Part shown: positions 3,437-61,542 of the stretch, piece after piece
Layout of the letters: every line of letters starts with the position of its first letter
Position numbering within the stretch: position 1 is the first letter of the stretch
Notes under the pieces: generated by a model
Told to the model about the DNA's origin: nothing
Seen by the model: only the letters and a program-made list of their open reading frames with translations
Database searches by the model: none
IMG/VR virus record: IMGVR_UViG_3300031413_000001
Length of the DNA stretch: 63,025 bases
Reading direction: 5' to 3' (one strand)
From: a virus
Lineage: Duplodnaviria; Heunggongvirae; Uroviricota; Caudoviricetes
Position numbers and translations under genes: made by a program

Positions 3437-4735
3437 ATGGCAGCGAATATGTCCGATCCAGTAGTCCAGGCAATCGTGGCAGCACGAGTCTCACTACTGT
3501 TCAATCAGCCATTCTTCGGCAACCTCGCAACCCGCATGGAGCTCATCGACGCGACCAAGTGGTGCAAGACGGCCGCAACGGATGGCCGGAAGCTCTACTA
3601 CAATCGTGAGTTCATCAAGGCCCTGACCCCCGAGGAACTCCTGTTCCTTATCGGCCATGAGGTTCTCCACTGCGTCTACGATCACCTTGGTCGTAAGGGT
3701 TCGCGCGAGCACAAGCTCTGGAACATGGCGAACGACTACATCGTCAACTATACGCTGGTCAAGGAAAAGCTGGGCGCAATGCCCAAGGGCGGCCTCTACG
3801 ACGACAAGTACACCGACGAGATGACCTCGGAGGAAGTGTACCGTCTTCTGGAGCAGAACCAGGCCAAGTTCCAGATGACCCTGGACGAGCATCTCGAAAT
3901 GGATGGCTCGGACGGCGACGATGACGGCGATGGCAACGGCGGCGGTCAGACGATCACCGTAACGGTCCAGGGCGACGGCAATGGTCCGCCCAAGCTGACC
4001 GAAGAGGACAAGGCCAAGATCCGTAACGAGATCAAGGCTGCGGTCATCAACGCTGCACAGGCAGTGGGTGCTGGCAAGGTCCCTGCAGGCGTCAAGCGTC
4101 TTATCGATGCTTTCACCAATCCGATCATGGACTGGCGGACGCTTCTCGAGATGCACATCCAGAGCTCGATCAAGGACGACTACACGTTCAATCGTCCGTC
4201 GAAGCGGTCGTGGGGCATGGGTGGCGGTGCATCCGTCATTCTCCCGGGCCAGAACTTCAAGGACACCGTTGACGTTGCAGTCTGCATCGACACTTCGGGT
4301 TCGATGACCGACGAGATGCTCCGCGATTTCCTCTCGGAAACCAAGGGCATCATGGAGACGTTCGACGACTTCAAGCTCACGCTTTGGACGTTCGACACGC
4401 AGGTCTATAACCCCGCGGTGTTCACAACCAACAACATCGACGAGATCATGGACTACGACCCCAAGGGCGGTGGTGGCACCATGTTCGAGTGCAACTGGGA
4501 GTTCATGCGCGATCCAGCTGGTGCTGGCTTTGCGGACGTGGACGGCCTGGGCGATGCCATCGAGCCGAAGAAGTTCGTTATGTTCACGGACGGTTATCCG
4601 TGCGGCCACTGGTGCCCGCCGGGTGACGAAGAGTATTGCGACACGCTGTTCGTTGTTCACGGCAACACCAGCATCGTTGCTCCGTTCGGCATGACGGCCT
4701 ACTACCAGAAGGAAGAGGTCCGCCAGGCGGCCTAA
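3437..4735 (+). CDS. DUF2201-type HEXXH metallopeptidase plus VWA domain protein (MoxR partner)
   Basis: TAATDG, HEVLH, DTSGS MIDAS, GGGGT, FTDG. Confidence 0.85.
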   Translation: MAANMSDPVVQAIVAARVSLLFNQPFFGNLATRMELIDATKWCKTAATDGRKLYYNREFIKALTPEELLFLIGHEVLHCVYDHLGRKGSREHKLWNMANDYIVNYTLVKEKLGAMPKGGLYDDKYTDEMTSEEVYRLLEQNQAKFQMTLDEHLEMDGSDGDDDGDGNGGGQTITVTVQGDGNGPPKLTEEDKAKIRNEIKAAVINAAQAVGAGKVPAGVKRLIDAFTNPIMDWRTLLEMHIQSSIKDDYTFNRPSKRSWGMGGGASVILPGQNFKDTVDVAVCIDTSGSMTDEMLRDFLSETKGIMETFDDFKLTLWTFDTQVYNPAVFTTNNIDEIMDYDPKGGGGTMFECNWEFMRDPAGAGFADVDGLGDAIEPKKFVMFTDGYPCGHWCPPGDEEYCDTLFVVHGNTSIVAPFGMTAYYQKEEVRQAA

Positions 4736-8298: not shown

Positions 8299-8412
8299 TT
8301 GCGTTGCTAGAACGCAAGATCGGAAAGGGGCTCTGGCAGCCCCAATTGGTGCATTCCTCGCGGTAGAGTCCGCGGGAGGGTACATCGCTCTGGCAGCGAA
8401 CTCCCCTTTCCG
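8299..8412 (+). ncRNA. structured intergenic RNA with twin GCTCTGGCAGC hairpins
   Basis: 10-bp closing stem 8321-30/8403-12; TTGACG promoter at 8267. Confidence 0.45.
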
Positions 8413-8814: not shown

Positions 8815-9654
8815 ATGACCCAAGCAACATGGATTCTTCACGGTAACATCCTGGAAAGGCTTGTTTACCATGGGCGCTCGCTGCCCGAGGCCATTACGGC
8901 CGCAGGTCATCGGTTCTCGATCATCGAATGGGAAACAGGACAGACTCCTCCCACTTCCGATGTTGACGCAAACCAGCCTGTCGTGCTGTTTGGATCCCAT
9001 CCATTTGTTCGCGCAATCAATCCCTCAGGAAAGTATCAGCCTGGACAGCTTGGTGTAAACGAGCGAACCACCGCTTCTGCATACATGAGCAATCTGCCCC
9101 TGGAGTGGTTTATGAACCGTGACGGGTTCTTTTTGCCATGGGCGGTGTTCAAGTTGCGCGCCAAAGAACTCTTTTATACCTGGGACACCGACCGGCTGTT
9201 TATCCGCCCCAACACGGGCTTTAAGAGCTTTGCTGGTCAGGTAGTCAAGTTTGGCACCATTGATGAGGACATCAATGGGCTCAACCAACTTACAGGCATC
9301 ATGGACGAGAACATGATCCTCGTCGCCCCTCCGCAGAAGATCCTGGGTGAATTCCGCTTCGTAGTCGCAGACGGCAAGGTCGTCACTGGTAGTGAATACC
9401 GGTGGGATGGTCGTCTAGATATTCGACGCGACTGGACACCCGAGTGTGAGGATCTTGCCCGTCAGGTGGCCGAGCATTCCTGGCAAGTGGATATCGCTTA
9501 TACCTGCGACGTCGCGCTCCTAGAGGAAGGTCCCCGTCTGGTAGAGCTCAACGGCTTCTCATGCGCGGGAATGTACGCCTGCGATATTGATAAGGTTGTT
9601 CGCGCGGTCAGCGATGCTGCGATCAAGGAGTTCTATGGCGATGATATTTCGTAG
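8815..9654 (+). CDS. ATP-grasp protein (R2K/DUF4343-like)
   Basis: FIRP...KSFAG, EFRFVV, DVA...LVELN; ends in TAG. Confidence 0.75.
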   Translation: MTQATWILHGNILERLVYHGRSLPEAITAAGHRFSIIEWETGQTPPTSDVDANQPVVLFGSHPFVRAINPSGKYQPGQLGVNERTTASAYMSNLPLEWFMNRDGFFLPWAVFKLRAKELFYTWDTDRLFIRPNTGFKSFAGQVVKFGTIDEDINGLNQLTGIMDENMILVAPPQKILGEFRFVVADGKVVTGSEYRWDGRLDIRRDWTPECEDLARQVAEHSWQVDIAYTCDVALLEEGPRLVELNGFSCAGMYACDIDKVVRAVSDAAIKEFYGDDIS

Positions 9655-10392: not shown

Positions 10393-11742
10393 ATGATAAA
10401 GATTCACAACAGCCAATCTAGGCAGCTGGAAGAGTTTGTTCCGCAAATGCCAGAGGACATCAAAATGTATGTCTGCGGCCCAACGGTCTATGGTCCGGCG
10501 CATATTGGTAATGCCCGTCCCGCGATCGTGTTCGACCAGATGTTTCGGCTGTTGCGCCACGTATATGGCGAGGATGCGGTCGTGTATGCTCGCAATATCA
10601 CAGACATTGATGACAAGATCATCGCAGCGGCCAATGCCCAGAACGTTCCCATCACCAGGATCACAGACACGGCAACCGCTGCATACAGGGCTGATTTGCA
10701 GGATCTAAACTGCCTTGAACCCAGCTATGAACCACAAGCCACTGCCTACGTGACGGGCATGATCGGCTACATCCAGCTGCTGATGGACAAGGGTCATGCT
10801 TATGGGGTCGATGGTGAGATCTTCTTCCACGTTCCCAGCAATCCCTATCCCGGCTTGGCCAACCACACGGCCCTGGAAAGCGGATCACGGGTGGAAGTGG
10901 ATCCACGCAAAAAGGATCCCAGGGATTTCGTGCTTTGGAAGCCGGCTAAGGTTGGTGAGCCCAGCTGGTATTCTCCCTTTGGCATTGGTCGTCCCGGTTG
11001 GCATATTGAATGCACGACGATGATCCGAAGCCTACTCGGCGATACCCTGGACATTCACGGTGGTGGTGCGGATCTTCGCTTTCCCCATCATGAAGCAGAG
11101 TGCGCGCAGAGTCAGTGCATCAGCGATGGTGCGCCACTTGCCAACTACTGGATGCACAATGGTCTCCTGACTGTTGATGACGAAAAGATGAGCAAGAGCC
11201 GCGGAAACGTGATCATGCTCAGCGAGTTGTTCGAGAGGGTGCCCGCCGAGAGCGTCCGGTACTATTTTCTGCAGAGCCATTACCGCAGCCCAATGAACTT
11301 TACCTATGAGGGCTTGGAAGCTTCGCACCGCGCGCTGAGCGGCCTGTATGATGCCCTCTACCGCTGCGACGATGTCAACTACGCGGAAGACGTCCGGGTT
11401 CATGCGGACTATCTGGGCGGATTGCTCAATGATCTCAACACTCCACAGGCGCTGAGCACAATGCACCAGCTTGCCAACGACATGGAGCGCGCGGACAACA
11501 AGGGCTTCTTCAAGGGTCAGCTTTTGGCTCTTGGTCGTCTCCTCGGTTTGTTTGAAAGCACACCGCACCAGTGGCGCACCTTTGGTGTTGACAAAGATGC
11601 AGTTGATGCTCTAGTGCAGGCACGTCAAGAGGCGCGTAGAAACAAAGACTACGCAGGTGCTGATGCGATTCGTCAGCAGTTACTGAGTATGGGAATCACG
11701 CTGGCCGATGGCGTTCACGGCACTGAATGGAGGAGGGCATAA
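10393..11742 (+). CDS. cysS: cysteinyl-tRNA synthetase
   Basis: CGPTVY, HIGN, GRPGWHIEC, FPHHE, KMSKS. Confidence 0.95.
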   Translation: MIKIHNSQSRQLEEFVPQMPEDIKMYVCGPTVYGPAHIGNARPAIVFDQMFRLLRHVYGEDAVVYARNITDIDDKIIAAANAQNVPITRITDTATAAYRADLQDLNCLEPSYEPQATAYVTGMIGYIQLLMDKGHAYGVDGEIFFHVPSNPYPGLANHTALESGSRVEVDPRKKDPRDFVLWKPAKVGEPSWYSPFGIGRPGWHIECTTMIRSLLGDTLDIHGGGADLRFPHHEAECAQSQCISDGAPLANYWMHNGLLTVDDEKMSKSRGNVIMLSELFERVPAESVRYYFLQSHYRSPMNFTYEGLEASHRALSGLYDALYRCDDVNYAEDVRVHADYLGGLLNDLNTPQALSTMHQLANDMERADNKGFFKGQLLALGRLLGLFESTPHQWRTFGVDKDAVDALVQARQEARRNKDYAGADAIRQQLLSMGITLADGVHGTEWRRA

Positions 11743-12332
11743 TGGCCTGGGAATTACTAGCTTTCGGGGGTGTCATGTTCTGGACCATCCTCGGCGTGAT
11801 CGGTCTGATCATCACCACGCAGGTTCACAATGAACGGGTAGGCTGGGCGGCCTTTACCTTCATCGCGATCATCGCCGCCCTGATCCTTTTCACCAACGTT
11901 CCCAAGCTTCTGGCAAATGCCACGCTTCTGGACTACGTGGAAGGTATCCTGCTCTACTTCGCACTTGCGGGTATCTGGGCGATCATCAAGTGGCGCGGAT
12001 TCTTCCTGCCCAGCTTGTTCCGGCGCTACAATGACTTGCGTGAGGACTTTCTGTTCCGCAAAAAGCTCAACGAGATGCCGGCCGATCCTGCGGTGATCAA
12101 GGAGTTCAACGATCACTATGGTGTGCAGAGCCTGAACATCAACGCCAACCGCATGGTGCGAAACAACAAGGGTCGCATCACCACGTGGATGATCTTCTGG
12201 CCGTTCTCGCTTCTCGAGACGTTCGTCGGAGACTTCCTGGCCAATATGTTCGACCGGATCTACCGGAGCATTCATGGTCTCCTGCAGCGCATGAGCGACA
12301 GCATGGCGAGCAAGTACAGCGAACTGAACTAA
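11742..12332 (+). CDS. multi-pass membrane protein
   Basis: 3-4 hydrophobic segments. Confidence 0.7.
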   Translation: MAWELLAFGGVMFWTILGVIGLIITTQVHNERVGWAAFTFIAIIAALILFTNVPKLLANATLLDYVEGILLYFALAGIWAIIKWRGFFLPSLFRRYNDLREDFLFRKKLNEMPADPAVIKEFNDHYGVQSLNINANRMVRNNKGRITTWMIFWPFSLLETFVGDFLANMFDRIYRSIHGLLQRMSDSMASKYSELN

Positions 12333-12383
12333 ACGGTTGACGGCCTCCTGTCCTGTGTTACGACCAGGACAGGAGGTGCAATC

Positions 12384-12854
12384 ATGCGGAAACAGATCGA
12401 TAACGTAATCACTATCGTCAACAGCAAGGATGAGACCAAGCTGACGCCCATGCAGCGGGCAACCAGCAGGATCATCACACTGCTGTTCATCTATGCCATC
12501 ATCGTGTTGGGCTCCGCAGAGGTGTTCTCGCTGATCGAAGGCACGCCGTACTGGCAGAGCTTTTACTGGGCCAACATGACCAGCACCAGCGTGGGCTACG
12601 GCGACATCTCGCCCAAGGTCGTGCTAGGTCAGATCATGGCCATCCTGCTGGCAAACTTCTCACTTCTCTTTCTGAGCCCGCTGATCACTGGTCGCGTTGC
12701 GGCTCAGATGATCGTGGACAGTGACAAGTACACCCACGAGGAGCAGGAAGAGGCAAAGGCTGCGTTGCTCCGAACGGAAGCCAATCAGGAAAAGATGCTC
12801 GCAATGCTGGAAAGTATCACGGCACGTCTTGACGCCCTGGATTCCAAAGCGTAA
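12384..12854 (+). CDS. two-TM potassium channel (KcsA-like)
   Basis: TSTSVGYGD selectivity filter between two TM helices. Confidence 0.85.
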   Translation: MRKQIDNVITIVNSKDETKLTPMQRATSRIITLLFIYAIIVLGSAEVFSLIEGTPYWQSFYWANMTSTSVGYGDISPKVVLGQIMAILLANFSLLFLSPLITGRVAAQMIVDSDKYTHEEQEEAKAALLRTEANQEKMLAMLESITARLDALDSKA

Positions 12855-12865
12855 TAGGACGTAAT

Positions 12866-12938
12866 GCTTCCATAGCTCAGTTGGTAGAGCAGGGGCCTCT
12901 AAAGCCTTGGGTCGGGAGTTCGAGCCTCCCTGGAAGCG
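12866..12938 (+). tRNA. amber suppressor tRNA (anticodon CUA)
   Basis: Acceptor GCTTCCA/TGGAAGC, D arm GCTC/GAGC, anticodon loop CT-CTA-AA, T loop TTCGAGC, G73; CCA not encoded. Confidence 0.9.
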
Positions 12939-13974: not shown

Positions 13975-14790
13975 ATGCAGAACATCTTCGACATCAATGG
14001 TCTCCAGTTTTGGAGCGAGGAAGAGATTCGTCTCCGGGAACACTTCCGGGACTTCTTCGCTCGGCGGATCCAGCAGGATCTCCTGGCCTTGAATCCACAG
14101 TGGGCCTTCCACTTTATCGAGGCTCCGCTCCTCACTCCTCGTCCGCTGCTGAATGCCAACTACACCAGCAAGGACGTGTGGGACCAGGCAGGTCACGGCG
14201 ACAGCGAGCAGCCGCTGACGCTTCGTCCGGAGACCACGCCGGGCAGCTACGCCTACGCGCAATATCTGCTCAACAACCACACGGGCAGCAAGCCTCCCTT
14301 TGTGGTCTGGCAAGCTGGTAAGAGCTTTCGTCGCGAGATCATCCAGCCAACCAAACACATGCGGTTGAAGGAATTCTATCAGCAGGAATTCCAGTGCCTG
14401 TTCACCGCAGATACGGCCAATGACTACCATGGGGCTATGCTGGAGCCCATCCGTGCGATGATCGCAAGCCAGATACCCCTGCCGACGCGCCTGGTCCCCA
14501 GTGATCGTCTGCCCACGTACTCGCTGAAGACCATGGACGTGGAAGTGTGGAACGGCGACAAGTGGATGGAAGTCTGCAGCATCAGCCTCCGAAATGACTT
14601 CCCGGAAAAGCTGACCTTTCAGACCAAAAAGGGTCTCGTGGAAAAGGACGCCCTGGTCCTCGAGATTGCCATTGGTCTGGACCGGATCATCTACAACTGG
14701 CAGCAGGGTCAGCGCACGAATATCATCCGGACAGCGCCCATTGAGTTGCCGGTAGCGGTGGAAGAGGAAGTTGAGGCGCATCCCTCGTGA
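13975..14790 (+). CDS. class II aaRS catalytic core, GlyRS-like, lacking anticodon-binding domain
   Basis: LRPET, motif 2 GKSFRRE..RLKEFYQQE, motif 3 EIAIGLDR; 271 aa. Confidence 0.8.
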   Translation: MQNIFDINGLQFWSEEEIRLREHFRDFFARRIQQDLLALNPQWAFHFIEAPLLTPRPLLNANYTSKDVWDQAGHGDSEQPLTLRPETTPGSYAYAQYLLNNHTGSKPPFVVWQAGKSFRREIIQPTKHMRLKEFYQQEFQCLFTADTANDYHGAMLEPIRAMIASQIPLPTRLVPSDRLPTYSLKTMDVEVWNGDKWMEVCSISLRNDFPEKLTFQTKKGLVEKDALVLEIAIGLDRIIYNWQQGQRTNIIRTAPIELPVAVEEEVEAHPS

Positions 14791-17623: not shown

Positions 17624-17698
17624 TTTAGTGGTTGACGTGTTCCTAATATCCACTAAGTTGAAGTTGTCCAATGAGGACATAGAAGAAAGGAAAGTTTA

Positions 17699-18157
17699 AT
17701 GCTCACGAACTCGTTCTTGTAGGAAGCAATCGACCGCTACGAAGCGGATAACGACGCCGAGGCCTTCGAAGCTGCCTCTGATAAGCTTCGCATTTACAGC
17801 ATCATCCGCGGCGACCTGGATATGACTCCGGGTAAGATGGCAAGCCAGGCTTGTCATGCGGCCAAGAACTGTGTGCTCCTCGCGAGTCGACGCGATCCCG
17901 CGCTCCTGCGTGTTTATCAGGGCCCGGACTTCATCGGCACCCAGGTCATCCTGAAGGCAAAGAACGAAGGTGCCATCTTGCGCGCCTACGAAGCAGCCCA
18001 GGAAGCTGGCCTGATCACCTCGCTTATTGTTGACAAGACCCACGTAATTCCGGGAACGGCATTCGATGGTAACCCCATCGTGACCGCCCTGGGTATTGGT
18101 CCTTGCACCAAGGAGCAGGCGCACGCCATCACCAAGCGATTCTCGGTGGTGGGCTGA
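17699..18157 (+). CDS. pth2: peptidyl-tRNA hydrolase Pth2 with in-frame TAG at codon 8 (17720-17722)
   Basis: IYSIIRGDLDMTPGKMASQACHA, VILK, IVD, TALGIGP; SD AAGGAA before ATG 17699. Confidence 0.85.
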
Positions 18158-18483
18158 TGAGCAGGGACTTTGAAACCGCACGGGCAGCGGCAACTCTCGC
18201 CTACACCACAGAGTACCAAAAGCACGGAGTAAACTTCGTTCCGCCGGTCAGTCCCATGAAGGACCGGGTATGGAGTGAGATGCTTCGAGCAGCGTGGCCC
18301 GATCAGGCCAGCGTTGAGGTGAAGAACTTTGGGTCCAACAAGCCCAACTACACCGAGATGCGACGCTGGTGCGATGAAAAGTCCAACTGCTCATATTGGA
18401 CAAATGGTGGCGGAAGCCGCTGGTATTTTGAGCGCAAGGACATCGCAGCGATGTTCAAACTGACTTTTGGAGGAGTTCAATAA
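18157..18483 (+). CDS. FKL-motif family protein
   Basis: RRWCDE...YFERKDIAAMFKLTFGG. Confidence 0.75.
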   Translation: MSRDFETARAAATLAYTTEYQKHGVNFVPPVSPMKDRVWSEMLRAAWPDQASVEVKNFGSNKPNYTEMRRWCDEKSNCSYWTNGGGSRWYFERKDIAAMFKLTFGGVQ

Positions 18484-19844: not shown

Positions 19845-21113
19845 ATGAAAAAGATTCCACTGCACAGCTTAGTTATCCTGGTTGGACCTGCCGGTGGTGG
19901 AAAAACAACGGCAGCCAGCAAGTTTGCGTCCTATGAAATAATTGGCGCTGAAGCCGTGCGCTTTGAATTGATTGGGGATTTCCAGAGAATGGACATCAAC
20001 GATGTGGTCTTCCGAGAGATCCATCGACGTGCCCACATGAAGCTGGAAATGGGCGAACGTGTGGTCATTGATGCAACCAATCTTCGCAAAAAGGACCGTC
20101 TTGGACTGGCTGAGATTGGCGTCCGCCTTGGCGTTCCAATCTATTACATCGTATGTAATCGACCCCTTGAGGAAAAGCTCAAGGAAGCAGATAACAGTTG
20201 GCGTCACAGTCCACAAGGTATCATCACCAAGCATGAGCATGTTTTCCGCAACAATGAGCGGGATATTGTACGTGGCGATGGTGTTGCCAATGTGGTTGAT
20301 ACACGAGTTGAAAGCTTCTCCCCCATCAGCAAGATGCCAATCGGCGATATCCAAGTTCCAATTCGTGAGCGTGGATTTCGTGGTCTAATGGTTATCGGCG
20401 ATGTACATGGCATGATTGAACCAGTTAAGAATGCAACCGAGTGGGCACTTCAGCGTGGACTGTTTTGCGTTTTCCTCGGAGACATTGTTGACTATGGACC
20501 TGCTTCACTGGAGTGCGTGGACTACGTCTACGACATTGTGACACGTGGCCGGGGAATCACGCTTATGGGAAATCATGAACGTAAGATTGAGCGTTGGTTG
20601 GAGCAGTCCCGCTACAATGATGTGAGGGTTCGCCTAAGTGAGGGAAACAAGGTTACCACACGCGCCATTGATGCACTGAATCCTGACCAGCGTCGTCGCT
20701 TTGAAGTTCGTTTCCGAGCATTGCTGGGATTCTCTCGTCACCACTGGCTGGTAGGCAACACTTTGTTCACACATGGTGCTGCTGAGCCCGAGATGTTTGA
20801 GATGAACACTGGTCGACTGACTGGACGGTTTGAGACAATGGCTCTCTTTGGAGAAGTGGACAACACCGCTGCGCCTCGTCCAGATGGATACCCCACGAGG
20901 ATCTATGAATGGGTCAACCGCATTCCAGCAGGAAAGCGCGTGATGGTTGGTCACGACATTCGAAGCACCGTAATGCCCATGGTAGTGCAGGGAGACGCTG
21001 GTGGCGAGGCGTACTTTATGGACACTGGCTCGGGCAAGGGAGGTCGCCTAACAAGCGCCGACGTGTTGTTCCAGGGTGAGGACCTCAACGTAAAAGCCTT
21101 TAAGTATCACTGA
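19845..21113 (+). CDS. polynucleotide kinase-phosphatase (Pnkp-like kinase plus metallophosphoesterase)
   Basis: GPAGGGKT, DATN, GDVHG, GDIVDYG, GNHE, GH, DTG. Confidence 0.85.
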   Translation: MKKIPLHSLVILVGPAGGGKTTAASKFASYEIIGAEAVRFELIGDFQRMDINDVVFREIHRRAHMKLEMGERVVIDATNLRKKDRLGLAEIGVRLGVPIYYIVCNRPLEEKLKEADNSWRHSPQGIITKHEHVFRNNERDIVRGDGVANVVDTRVESFSPISKMPIGDIQVPIRERGFRGLMVIGDVHGMIEPVKNATEWALQRGLFCVFLGDIVDYGPASLECVDYVYDIVTRGRGITLMGNHERKIERWLEQSRYNDVRVRLSEGNKVTTRAIDALNPDQRRRFEVRFRALLGFSRHHWLVGNTLFTHGAAEPEMFEMNTGRLTGRFETMALFGEVDNTAAPRPDGYPTRIYEWVNRIPAGKRVMVGHDIRSTVMPMVVQGDAGGEAYFMDTGSGKGGRLTSADVLFQGEDLNVKAFKYH

Positions 21114-61161: not shown

Positions 61162-61542
61162 ATGGAGATTTATTTTGATGGCGGATGTGCACCAAACCCA
61201 GGTGCGATGAGTTCCTGTATTGTAATCTGCCGCCCAGGGCAAAAGGCCCAAGCCTTTACTATGAAAGACCTGGGCCAGGGAACCAACAATGTAGCGGAGT
61301 GGTCAGCCCTCGTCTGGGCTGCTCTTTGGGCCAAAGACAATGGCGTTCAAAAGGCCACTATCTACGGCGACAGTCTCCTCGTTATCAATCAGGCCAGTGG
61401 AGCCTGGAAGATCAATAACCAGTTGCTTGCCAACTTGTTCAAACAGTTCAAGGAGGTCTCGAATGGACTTGATCTTGAGCTTTGCCATGTTTACCGGGAT
61501 TCCAATCTTGCTGGTATCTATTTGGAGCACGGAACTCTTTAG
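61162..61542 (+). CDS. rnhA: ribonuclease HI
   Basis: YFDGG, TNNVAEW, GDS.LVINQ, HVYRDSN; ends in TAG. Confidence 0.85.
   Translation: MEIYFDGGCAPNPGAMSSCIVICRPGQKAQAFTMKDLGQGTNNVAEWSALVWAALWAKDNGVQKATIYGDSLLVINQASGAWKINNQLLANLFKQFKEVSNGLDLELCHVYRDSNLAGIYLEHGTL

Follow-up and report, generated by a model that had tools for sequence, protein, structure and literature searches.

The 63,025-nucleotide window analysed here (the whole stretch of viral DNA recorded as IMGVR_UViG_3300031413_000001, Caudoviricetes) carries a gene for a peptidyl-tRNA hydrolase of the Pth2 type, pth2, whose reading frame is interrupted after seven codons by an in-frame amber codon. The arrangement of a short leader, one in-frame stop and the Pth2 core was conserved in all 23 distinct related loci, and a suppressor tRNA matching the stop was present in all searchable genomes and large contigs. 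As decoding mechanism, a readthrough gate that acts on this single gene and depends on the phage suppressor tRNA is in our judgement probable.

The source is a jumbo phage with a GC content of 52%, and its kin are Sinorhizobium phage Phosso and Agrobacterium phage Atu_ph07; a near-identical metagenomic genome of 417 kb (G001) shares 93% identity with the window over the pth2 region. On the plus strand of the window, a Shine-Dalgarno (SD) site, AAGGAA (17687..17692), lies 6 nucleotides (nt) 5' of the ATG (17699-17701) that opens the leader MLTNSFL (17699..17719, codons 1-7), which we read as the true N-terminus of Pth2. The amber codon TAG (17720..17722) follows in the same frame as the Pth2 domain, and this layout was exactly as given in a preliminary description of the window. 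Beyond the TAG, the proposed gate, the frame is open through an N-terminal extension of 20 codons devoid of a canonical start codon (17723..17782) and the Pth2 core, KLRIYSIIRGDL and onwards (17783..18157, Pfam PF01981), up to a TGA stop at 18155-18157. An internal ATG (17822..17824, Met42), annotated as the start in the GenBank entries of the relatives, is not considered the real start, and a scan of the window locus agreed with the preliminary description that no ATG, GTG or TTG lies in frame between the TAG and this ATG. The readthrough product would comprise 152 residues, with an extension of approximately 28 residues N-terminal of the Pth2 domain.

In the proposed mechanism, ribosomes would load at the SD-preceded leader ATG, read seven codons and reach the UAG. 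Where release factor 1 wins at this codon, the heptapeptide alone would result; where the phage suppressor tRNA encoded at 12866..12938 (plus strand) decodes it, translation would continue in the same frame to give the 152-residue Pth2. The output of Pth2 would in this way report the functional, charged suppressor relative to the release factor.

Related loci were gathered from GenBank phages, IMG/VR and Joint Genome Institute (JGI) metagenomes, giving 26 loci with 23 distinct sequences. The shared layout, present in 23 of 23, began with an SD site and an ATG; a leader 2-8 codons long came next and was closed by a single in-frame stop, with another 7-37 codons between this stop and the core KLRIYSIIRGDL. 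An SD match of 4-6 nt at proper spacing preceded each leader, and the stop always fell at pth2 codons 3-9. Neither CAG nor GAG, which the preliminary description had considered as possible signs of an error or a fresh nonsense mutation, occurred at the position of the stop, which was TAG in 22 loci and TGA in one, that of Atu_ph07. The layout spans the two cultured phages Phosso and Atu_ph07 and at least six unrelated leader sequences: MLTNSFL-TAG in the window clade, MKTEFL-TAG in L179, MKY-, MSY- or MTYN-TAG in the Phosso clade, MTAFT-, MDFT-, MSEFT- and MFS-TAG in L158, L175, L178 and L177, respectively, MNVHLPFR-TAG in L170, MTM-TAG in L053 and MIGEHF-TGA in Atu_ph07. The predicted reading across the stop is MIGEHF-X-INYEELGYETEEQFVEASDK in Atu_ph07 and MKY-X-VEEK in Phosso.

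Since a stop recurs at this position in 23 loci from independent assemblies, a sequencing error is untenable, and on this comparative evidence the stop can be put down neither to an error nor to a recent mutation. A search with the N-terminal 45 residues against 5.8 billion called proteins for a sense codon at the position of the stop returned zero matches; the lack of any called protein with an uninterrupted N-terminus fits a stop that is universal among the relatives. The surroundings of the stop were conserved as well, with a purine directly 3' of it in 22 of the 23 loci and an aromatic residue (F or Y) one to two codons before it in nearly all loci and leader types. Both features may constitute a context favouring suppression, or form part of the mature N-terminus.

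Suppressor tRNAs and their match to the stop

The amber suppressor tRNA of the window (anticodon CUA, discriminator G73, no encoded CCA) was detected by both ARAGORN and Rfam (65.9 bits) and lies 4.8 kb upstream of pth2, where the preliminary description had placed it. A tRNA-CUA was likewise located 2-5 kb upstream of pth2 and on the same strand in G001, L046-L051, L056, L168, L169, L173, L179 and Phosso, and elsewhere in the genome in G002 and G010. The association of TAG with tRNA-CUA that the preliminary description had anticipated was borne out: the two occur together in the window and in at least 15 relatives (G001, G002, G005-G010, Phosso, L047, L056, L168, L169, L173 and L179), and a tRNA-CUA was found in every searchable TAG genome or large contig. 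Complete ARAGORN inventories yielded 63 tRNAs for Phosso and 56 for G001, each with two CUA suppressors, and 31 for Atu_ph07, with one UCA suppressor and no CUA. Atu_ph07, the sole phage with TGA in pth2, thus carries a tRNA-UCA instead of a tRNA-CUA. As the sequence of this tRNA shows no relationship to the CUA tRNAs, stop and suppressor changed together.

The CUA tRNAs are, on comparative grounds, real genes under selection. Within the family (n = 11), 15 of the 21 stem pairs had undergone compensatory double changes, and the sequence of the anticodon loop, CUCUAAA, was the same throughout. Their structure is a canonical 7/4/5/5 cloverleaf of 73-76 nt with a normal D-loop (GG) and the T-loop GTTCGA. 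Selenocysteine (Sec) and pyrrolysine (Pyl) tRNAs, for which a long variable arm with an extended acceptor stem and a short D-loop with a 3-nt variable loop, respectively, served as criteria, were ruled out by this ordinary cloverleaf; the 'Pyl' and 'SeC' labels given by ARAGORN reflect the anticodon alone. A second tRNA-CUA lies outside the pth2 neighbourhood in G001 (330698-330776, minus strand) and in Phosso (446731-446806, plus strand). The former is 79 nt long with a longer variable region, and the latter has the discriminator A73 and two U-U mismatches in the acceptor stem.

We infer from the comparison of sequences that the stop is read through by means of the phage suppressor tRNA. Several points weigh against this interpretation. 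The match between stop and anticodon rests on essentially one switch, that of Atu_ph07 versus all others, and the suppressor search covered genomes and large contigs, leaving out the fragments G003 and G004, short contigs, and L172 and L177. The identity of the tRNAs, judged by similarity to phage tRNAs, was ambiguous (Trp-, Lys- or Val-like), so that no amino acid could be assigned. Pairings proposed by RNAalifold 3' of the stop were all invariant, so that covariation speaks neither for nor against a stimulatory RNA element. Finally, TAG and TGA are kept as terminators of other genes; the suppressors can therefore not be very efficient, which makes partial suppression probable, or else the side effects of readthrough are tolerated.

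It is conceivable, if improbable, that the phage suppressor tRNA has some other purpose and that pth2 is decoded without it. That the stop comes early, is followed by a purine and is preceded by a conserved aromatic residue suggests selection on its context, and no suppressor was seen in G003, G004 and L177, all of which are fragments. Such a reading is contradicted by the presence of a matching suppressor in each of the searchable genomes and large contigs, by the synteny of the tRNA with pth2 in 13 loci, and by the fact that the sole change in the type of stop was accompanied by a change of suppressor, achieved through an unrelated tRNA.

Start of translation and the Pth2 protein

The pattern of substitution bears on where translation starts. 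Codon-position counts were obtained from nine close relatives, in all of which the TAG was invariant. Variable sites at codon positions 1, 2 and 3 numbered 2, 1 and 4 in the leader, 6, 5 and 16 in the post-stop extension, 1, 1 and 7 in the core upstream of ATG 17822, and 2, 1 and 9 in the undisputed core downstream of it. The leader peptide M-L/I-T/S/I-N-S-F-L was kept under synonymous variation of the codons for Leu, Thr, Asn and Ser (CTC/CTT/CTG/TTG, ACG/ACC, AAC/AAT, TCG/TCT and TTG/CTG). Between the window (52% GC) and Atu_ph07 (37% GC), the peptide KLRIYSI was preserved despite the codon changes CGC to AGA and AGC to TCC. The third-position bias on both sides of the stop, together with the preserved KLRIYSI, implies that translation must start upstream of strand beta1 of the Pth2 fold. 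On this evidence, leader and post-stop stretch are evolving as one protein in one frame.

A start at the internal ATG is difficult to reconcile with the structure of the protein. Solved Pth2 structures align from residues 31-34 of the query, and the AlphaFold2 model places beta1 at residues 31-37, upstream of Met42, so that initiation at ATG 17822 would delete this strand. The loss of conserved core that the preliminary description had expected from such a start is thereby supported by both the model and the structure alignments. The deposited coding sequences (CDSs) of pth2 nevertheless begin at the internal Met, namely XYS97424.1 of Phosso (L001 3040-3372) and AUZ95035.1 of Atu_ph07 (L002 3040-3372), the latter labelled 'hypothetical protein'; in both, the annotated start lies 13 codons past the onset of protein similarity. 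These calls are an annotation artefact of the stop. The leader ATG is the only start equipped with an SD site, from which it follows that the stop has to be decoded. The claim of the preliminary description that full-length Pth2 needs UAG readthrough is accordingly supported by the conservation of the layout, the coding selection and the lack of an alternative start.

The short open reading frame (ORF) could instead be a separate regulatory upstream ORF (uORF), with Pth2 starting independently at a non-canonical codon or by reinitiation and no readthrough taking place. The leader is indeed very short, has a strong SD site and in these respects resembles a regulatory leader; in some loci, moreover, an ATC or ATT occurs three codons past the stop, with the GGAA of TAG-GAA in front of it. 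A downstream ATT or CTG start, which the preliminary description had named as a possible way out, is excluded as a general solution, since 7 of the 23 loci are devoid of NTG and ATN codons in the stretch from the stop to beta1. In every lineage, the leader is in frame with pth2 with exactly one stop between them, and the type of stop fits the anticodon of the phage suppressor, a match that a plain uORF would not need. Proline-rich ribosome-arrest motifs of the RAPP or RGPP type were not found after the stop in any of the related loci. We accordingly give a uORF very little credence. The called CDSs of Phosso and Atu_ph07 notwithstanding, a pseudogene, a truncated protein of 111 residues from ATG 17822 or an assembly error at the TAG is extremely improbable and effectively refuted by the comparative data, namely the retention of the stop in 23 distinct loci, which stem from independently assembled sequences and include two cultured phages, the purifying selection upstream of the internal ATG, the absence of the internal Met from three loci (L170, L177 and L178), and the lack of beta1 in the truncated product.

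The product of readthrough was recognized by the Pfam profile PTH2 (PF01981) with 75.1 bits (cut-off 23; E-value 6.8e-21), in a match that starts at residue 32 and covers positions 3-113 of the 115 in the profile. It missed the equivalog cut-offs of NCBIfam (PRK04322, 64.3 vs. 126 bits; TIGR00283, 57.9 vs. 82 bits); judged by these scores, the gated Pth2 is a divergent subfamily and not an equivalog of archaeal Pth2. The AlphaFold2 model (predicted local distance difference test, pLDDT, 81.8) contains the alpha/beta fold of Pth2, including the predicted strand beta1, and predicts a pair of helices, with a confidence that is low to moderate, for the post-stop extension. In a Foldseek search of the PDB, the top 14 matches were all Pth2 (2zv3, 1wn2, 3erj, 1q7s, 1rlk and 1xty among them), with TM-scores of 0.77-0.86 against the target. 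Within the motif G-K-x-A-x-Q-x-x-H-A, residues K46, Q50, H53 and A54 were invariant across 13 sequences, and the Asp of the (I/V)-x-D strand, D112, was nearly so. In Pth2 these residues are catalytic, and they are predicted to be so here as well.

Distant phage Pth2 genes (XacN1, Xoo-sp13, RsoM2USA, SCTP-2, phiM19 and Baka) have a normal start and encode M-x-x-K-Q-(I/V)-I-V-V-R, which indicates that the gate is specific to one Pth2 subfamily. Phosso (17791-18324, plus strand) and Atu_ph07 (466378-466869, minus strand) each encode a second Pth2 paralogue, which starts normally and has a long extension at its N-terminus; with this paralogue beside the stop-bearing pth2, each of these phages would have one ungated and one gated Pth2. 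The paralogue of Atu_ph07 probably corresponds to gp680, for which a transmembrane segment was reported (PMC6102473).

A single, probably gated gene in a standard code

Whether further genes are interrupted in the same way was assessed by an ORF-level comparison with a filter for antisense ('shadow') frames. This replaced a stop-tolerant six-frame BLAST, which was too noisy because its alignments crossed non-coding frames on nucleotide similarity alone. G001 and the window were compared with Phosso and Atu_ph07, and the window also with the syntenic regions of three intermediate relatives; the scan thus covered the genes conserved among the compared relatives, i.e., 66 ORFs of the window and approximately 220 of G001. 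Among these, pth2 was the only conserved ORF whose conserved N-terminus follows a stop without a start codon, and no real gene was found to be split by TAG. Two candidate split genes, G001_40/41 and G001_3242/3243, were discarded, their translations resembling antisense junk. Other ORFs flagged for a start-less N-terminus (at 8367, 9928, 18672, 50686, 58339, 61539 and others) each have an ordinary ATG, GTG or TTG; the additional upstream alignment arose from similarity in the SD region or because the ORF overlaps the preceding gene at its conserved end.

One further anomaly was noted in G001, where a HisRS/HisZ-like ORF (358290-358832, minus strand) has its conserved N-terminus right after a TGA, with no start for 34 codons. 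Its orthologue in Phosso (4066-4686) starts normally, and the anomaly is possibly an assembly error or a frameshift in the metagenomic contig.

Genome-wide recoding of TAG (as in code 15), with pth2 as one of many affected genes, can hardly be entertained. It would account for a phage CUA tRNA of which the genome has another copy elsewhere, and for the rarity of TAG as a terminator in the window, where the 65 genes end with TAA (40), TGA (23) and TAG (2). Long ORFs of the window, including one of 3710 amino acids, are nevertheless intact under the standard code, and pth2 stands alone among the conserved genes in containing or being split by TAG. The codons in question also continue to serve as terminators: the 218 conserved genes of G001 end with TAA (144), TGA (61) and TAG (13), and in Atu_ph07 TGA terminates 154 of 427 long ORFs and approximately 37% of the genes (see also PMC6102473). 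Just two of the conserved window genes terminate with TAG, at 9652-9654 and 61540-61542 (both plus strand); amber readthrough there would append 31 and 23 unconserved codons, respectively. On these comparative data, a single gene would be gated within an otherwise standard code. Of the conditional switch without genome-wide recoding that the preliminary description had proposed, the restriction to one gene is thus sustained for the conserved genes of the window and G001, with a 'switch' as its putative purpose.

Possible purpose of the proposed gate, known systems and gene neighbourhood

The purpose of the gate, which we infer to be a coupling of peptidyl-tRNA hydrolase to suppressor activity, is the weakest step of the interpretation. 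Several candidates can be put forward. The gate may act as a timer, with Pth2 made only after the tRNA has accumulated. It may also be a feed-forward safeguard by which peptidyl-tRNA hydrolase is made in proportion to readthrough, given that readthrough drives ribosomes into 3' ends and so raises the peptidyl-tRNA load. More conjecturally, and by analogy with release factor 2 at its early UGA, Pth2 might act on the suppressor or its products in a feedback. A last candidate is an evolutionary lock that would retain the tRNA in the genome.

A further candidate component is a stand-alone catalytic core of a class II aminoacyl-tRNA synthetase (aaRS) of 271 amino acids, tentatively included as a part of the system (13975..14790, plus strand). 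The protein matched Pfam tRNA-synt_2b, with GlyRS and HisRS as best matches far under the family cut-offs. Class II motifs 1, 2 and 3 were invariant, and because the sequence ends just past motif 3, it has no anticodon-binding domain. In all 13 loci with the syntenic tRNA-CUA, the gene follows this tRNA at a short distance downstream. As such an enzyme cannot read the anticodon, it may be a candidate for the anticodon-blind charging of the suppressor tRNA. Neither Atu_ph07 nor the complete genome G002 encodes it, and as an obligatory partner it was rejected, since G002 has the TAG-bearing pth2 and a CUA tRNA without such a gene. A private-codon module, in which the aaRS core would charge the suppressor, one stop would be decoded and Pth2 would feed back on the suppressor or on what suppression brings about, so as to measure and set the level of readthrough, is in our view unlikely; if true, it would provide a natural function for the 'orphan' suppressor tRNAs of standard-code jumbo phages.

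Among known systems, the gene of release factor 2, prfB, is autoregulated through an early in-frame UGA, which is passed by a +1 frameshift and through which the gene senses its own product. The pth2 case resembles it in having an early in-frame stop in a gene for a translation factor, where decoding of the stop would set the output. Unlike in prfB, the frame downstream of the pth2 stop is that of the leader in all loci, which points to readthrough and not to a frameshift of the prfB type, and the factor sensed would be a tRNA.

Phages with a recoded genome and suppressor tRNAs of their own read TAG as Gln or TGA as Trp and include crAss-like, Lak, Jade and other phages (10.1101/2021.08.26.457843; PMC9523058). 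They share with the present case a phage suppressor tRNA for an in-frame stop in a phage gene, the expression of which is proposed to await the tRNA. In recoded phages, the code is in effect reassigned, and the dozens to hundreds of genes concerned are for the most part late, structural or lysis genes, whereas here a single stop at codons 3-9 of a single gene is involved and the codon is still used as a terminator. The pth2 case may accordingly be regarded as suppressor-mediated recoding reduced to a single-gene gate, and this design may be an early stage toward full reassignment of a stop codon.

Suppressor tRNAs without a target have been described in jumbo phages of the same kind, one of which, Atu_ph07, belongs to the present clade. 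For Atu_ph07, a UCA suppressor and two putative Pth genes were reported, unlinked, and the many genes ending with UGA were proposed as targets (PMC6102473); for XacN1, 18 amber terminators were read through in search of targets of its tRNA-CUA, and none was found (PMC5852040). Unlike in these papers, a specific and conserved target within a gene is proposed here for the Atu_ph07 clade. The CUA tRNAs of XacN1, whose Pth2 starts normally, remain without a target. Programmed readthrough in other viruses, as for the A1 protein of Qbeta and retroviral gag-pol (PMC13517186, PMC7026636), likewise involves an in-frame stop that is decoded to give a longer functional protein. It relies on near-cognate tRNAs of the host, adds a C-terminal extension, gives two functional products and often involves a downstream RNA structure. 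The pth2 gate would differ in its cognate suppressor supplied by the virus, in the N-terminal position of the stop and in its terminated product, a peptide of 2-8 residues.

Full-text searches of the literature returned no description of a suppressor-gated Pth gene. For the Atu_ph07/Phosso clade, the proposed gate would give the suppressor tRNAs of standard-code phages a specific conserved target, with one tRNA gating one gene, and it ties stop-codon suppression to the recycling of peptidyl-tRNA, a link that hints at the way in which phages cope with what readthrough costs them. A further consequence is a correction of the pth2 annotation deposited for two cultured phages, in which the CDS is without beta1. 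The proposal is directly testable in both, since cultures exist of Atu_ph07, whose host is Agrobacterium tumefaciens C58, and of Phosso, whose host is Sinorhizobium meliloti.

Upstream of pth2, a conserved TA(A/T)GTTGA followed by a small hairpin (TGTCC-loop-GGACA) lies 8-20 nt 5' of the SD site (17654-17679 in the window, plus strand). Compensatory changes were observed at three pairs of the hairpin among the relatives. A scan for sigma-70 promoters and terminators around pth2 and the tRNA returned nothing passing near pth2, the hairpin included; motif and hairpin may serve as a promoter or operator of the phage, or as a site of processing. Genes related to tRNA abound in the wider neighbourhood. 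Upstream of the suppressor tRNA (10393-12854, plus strand) lie a full-length CysRS of 449 amino acids (10393-11742, plus strand; Pfam tRNA-synt_1e, E-value 9e-106), a conserved ORF of 201 amino acids and a protein of 156 amino acids with an Ion_trans_2 ion-channel domain. The CysRS gene and the 201-amino-acid ORF hold the same position beside the tRNA in Phosso. A kinase-phosphatase gene is located at 19845-21113 of the window.

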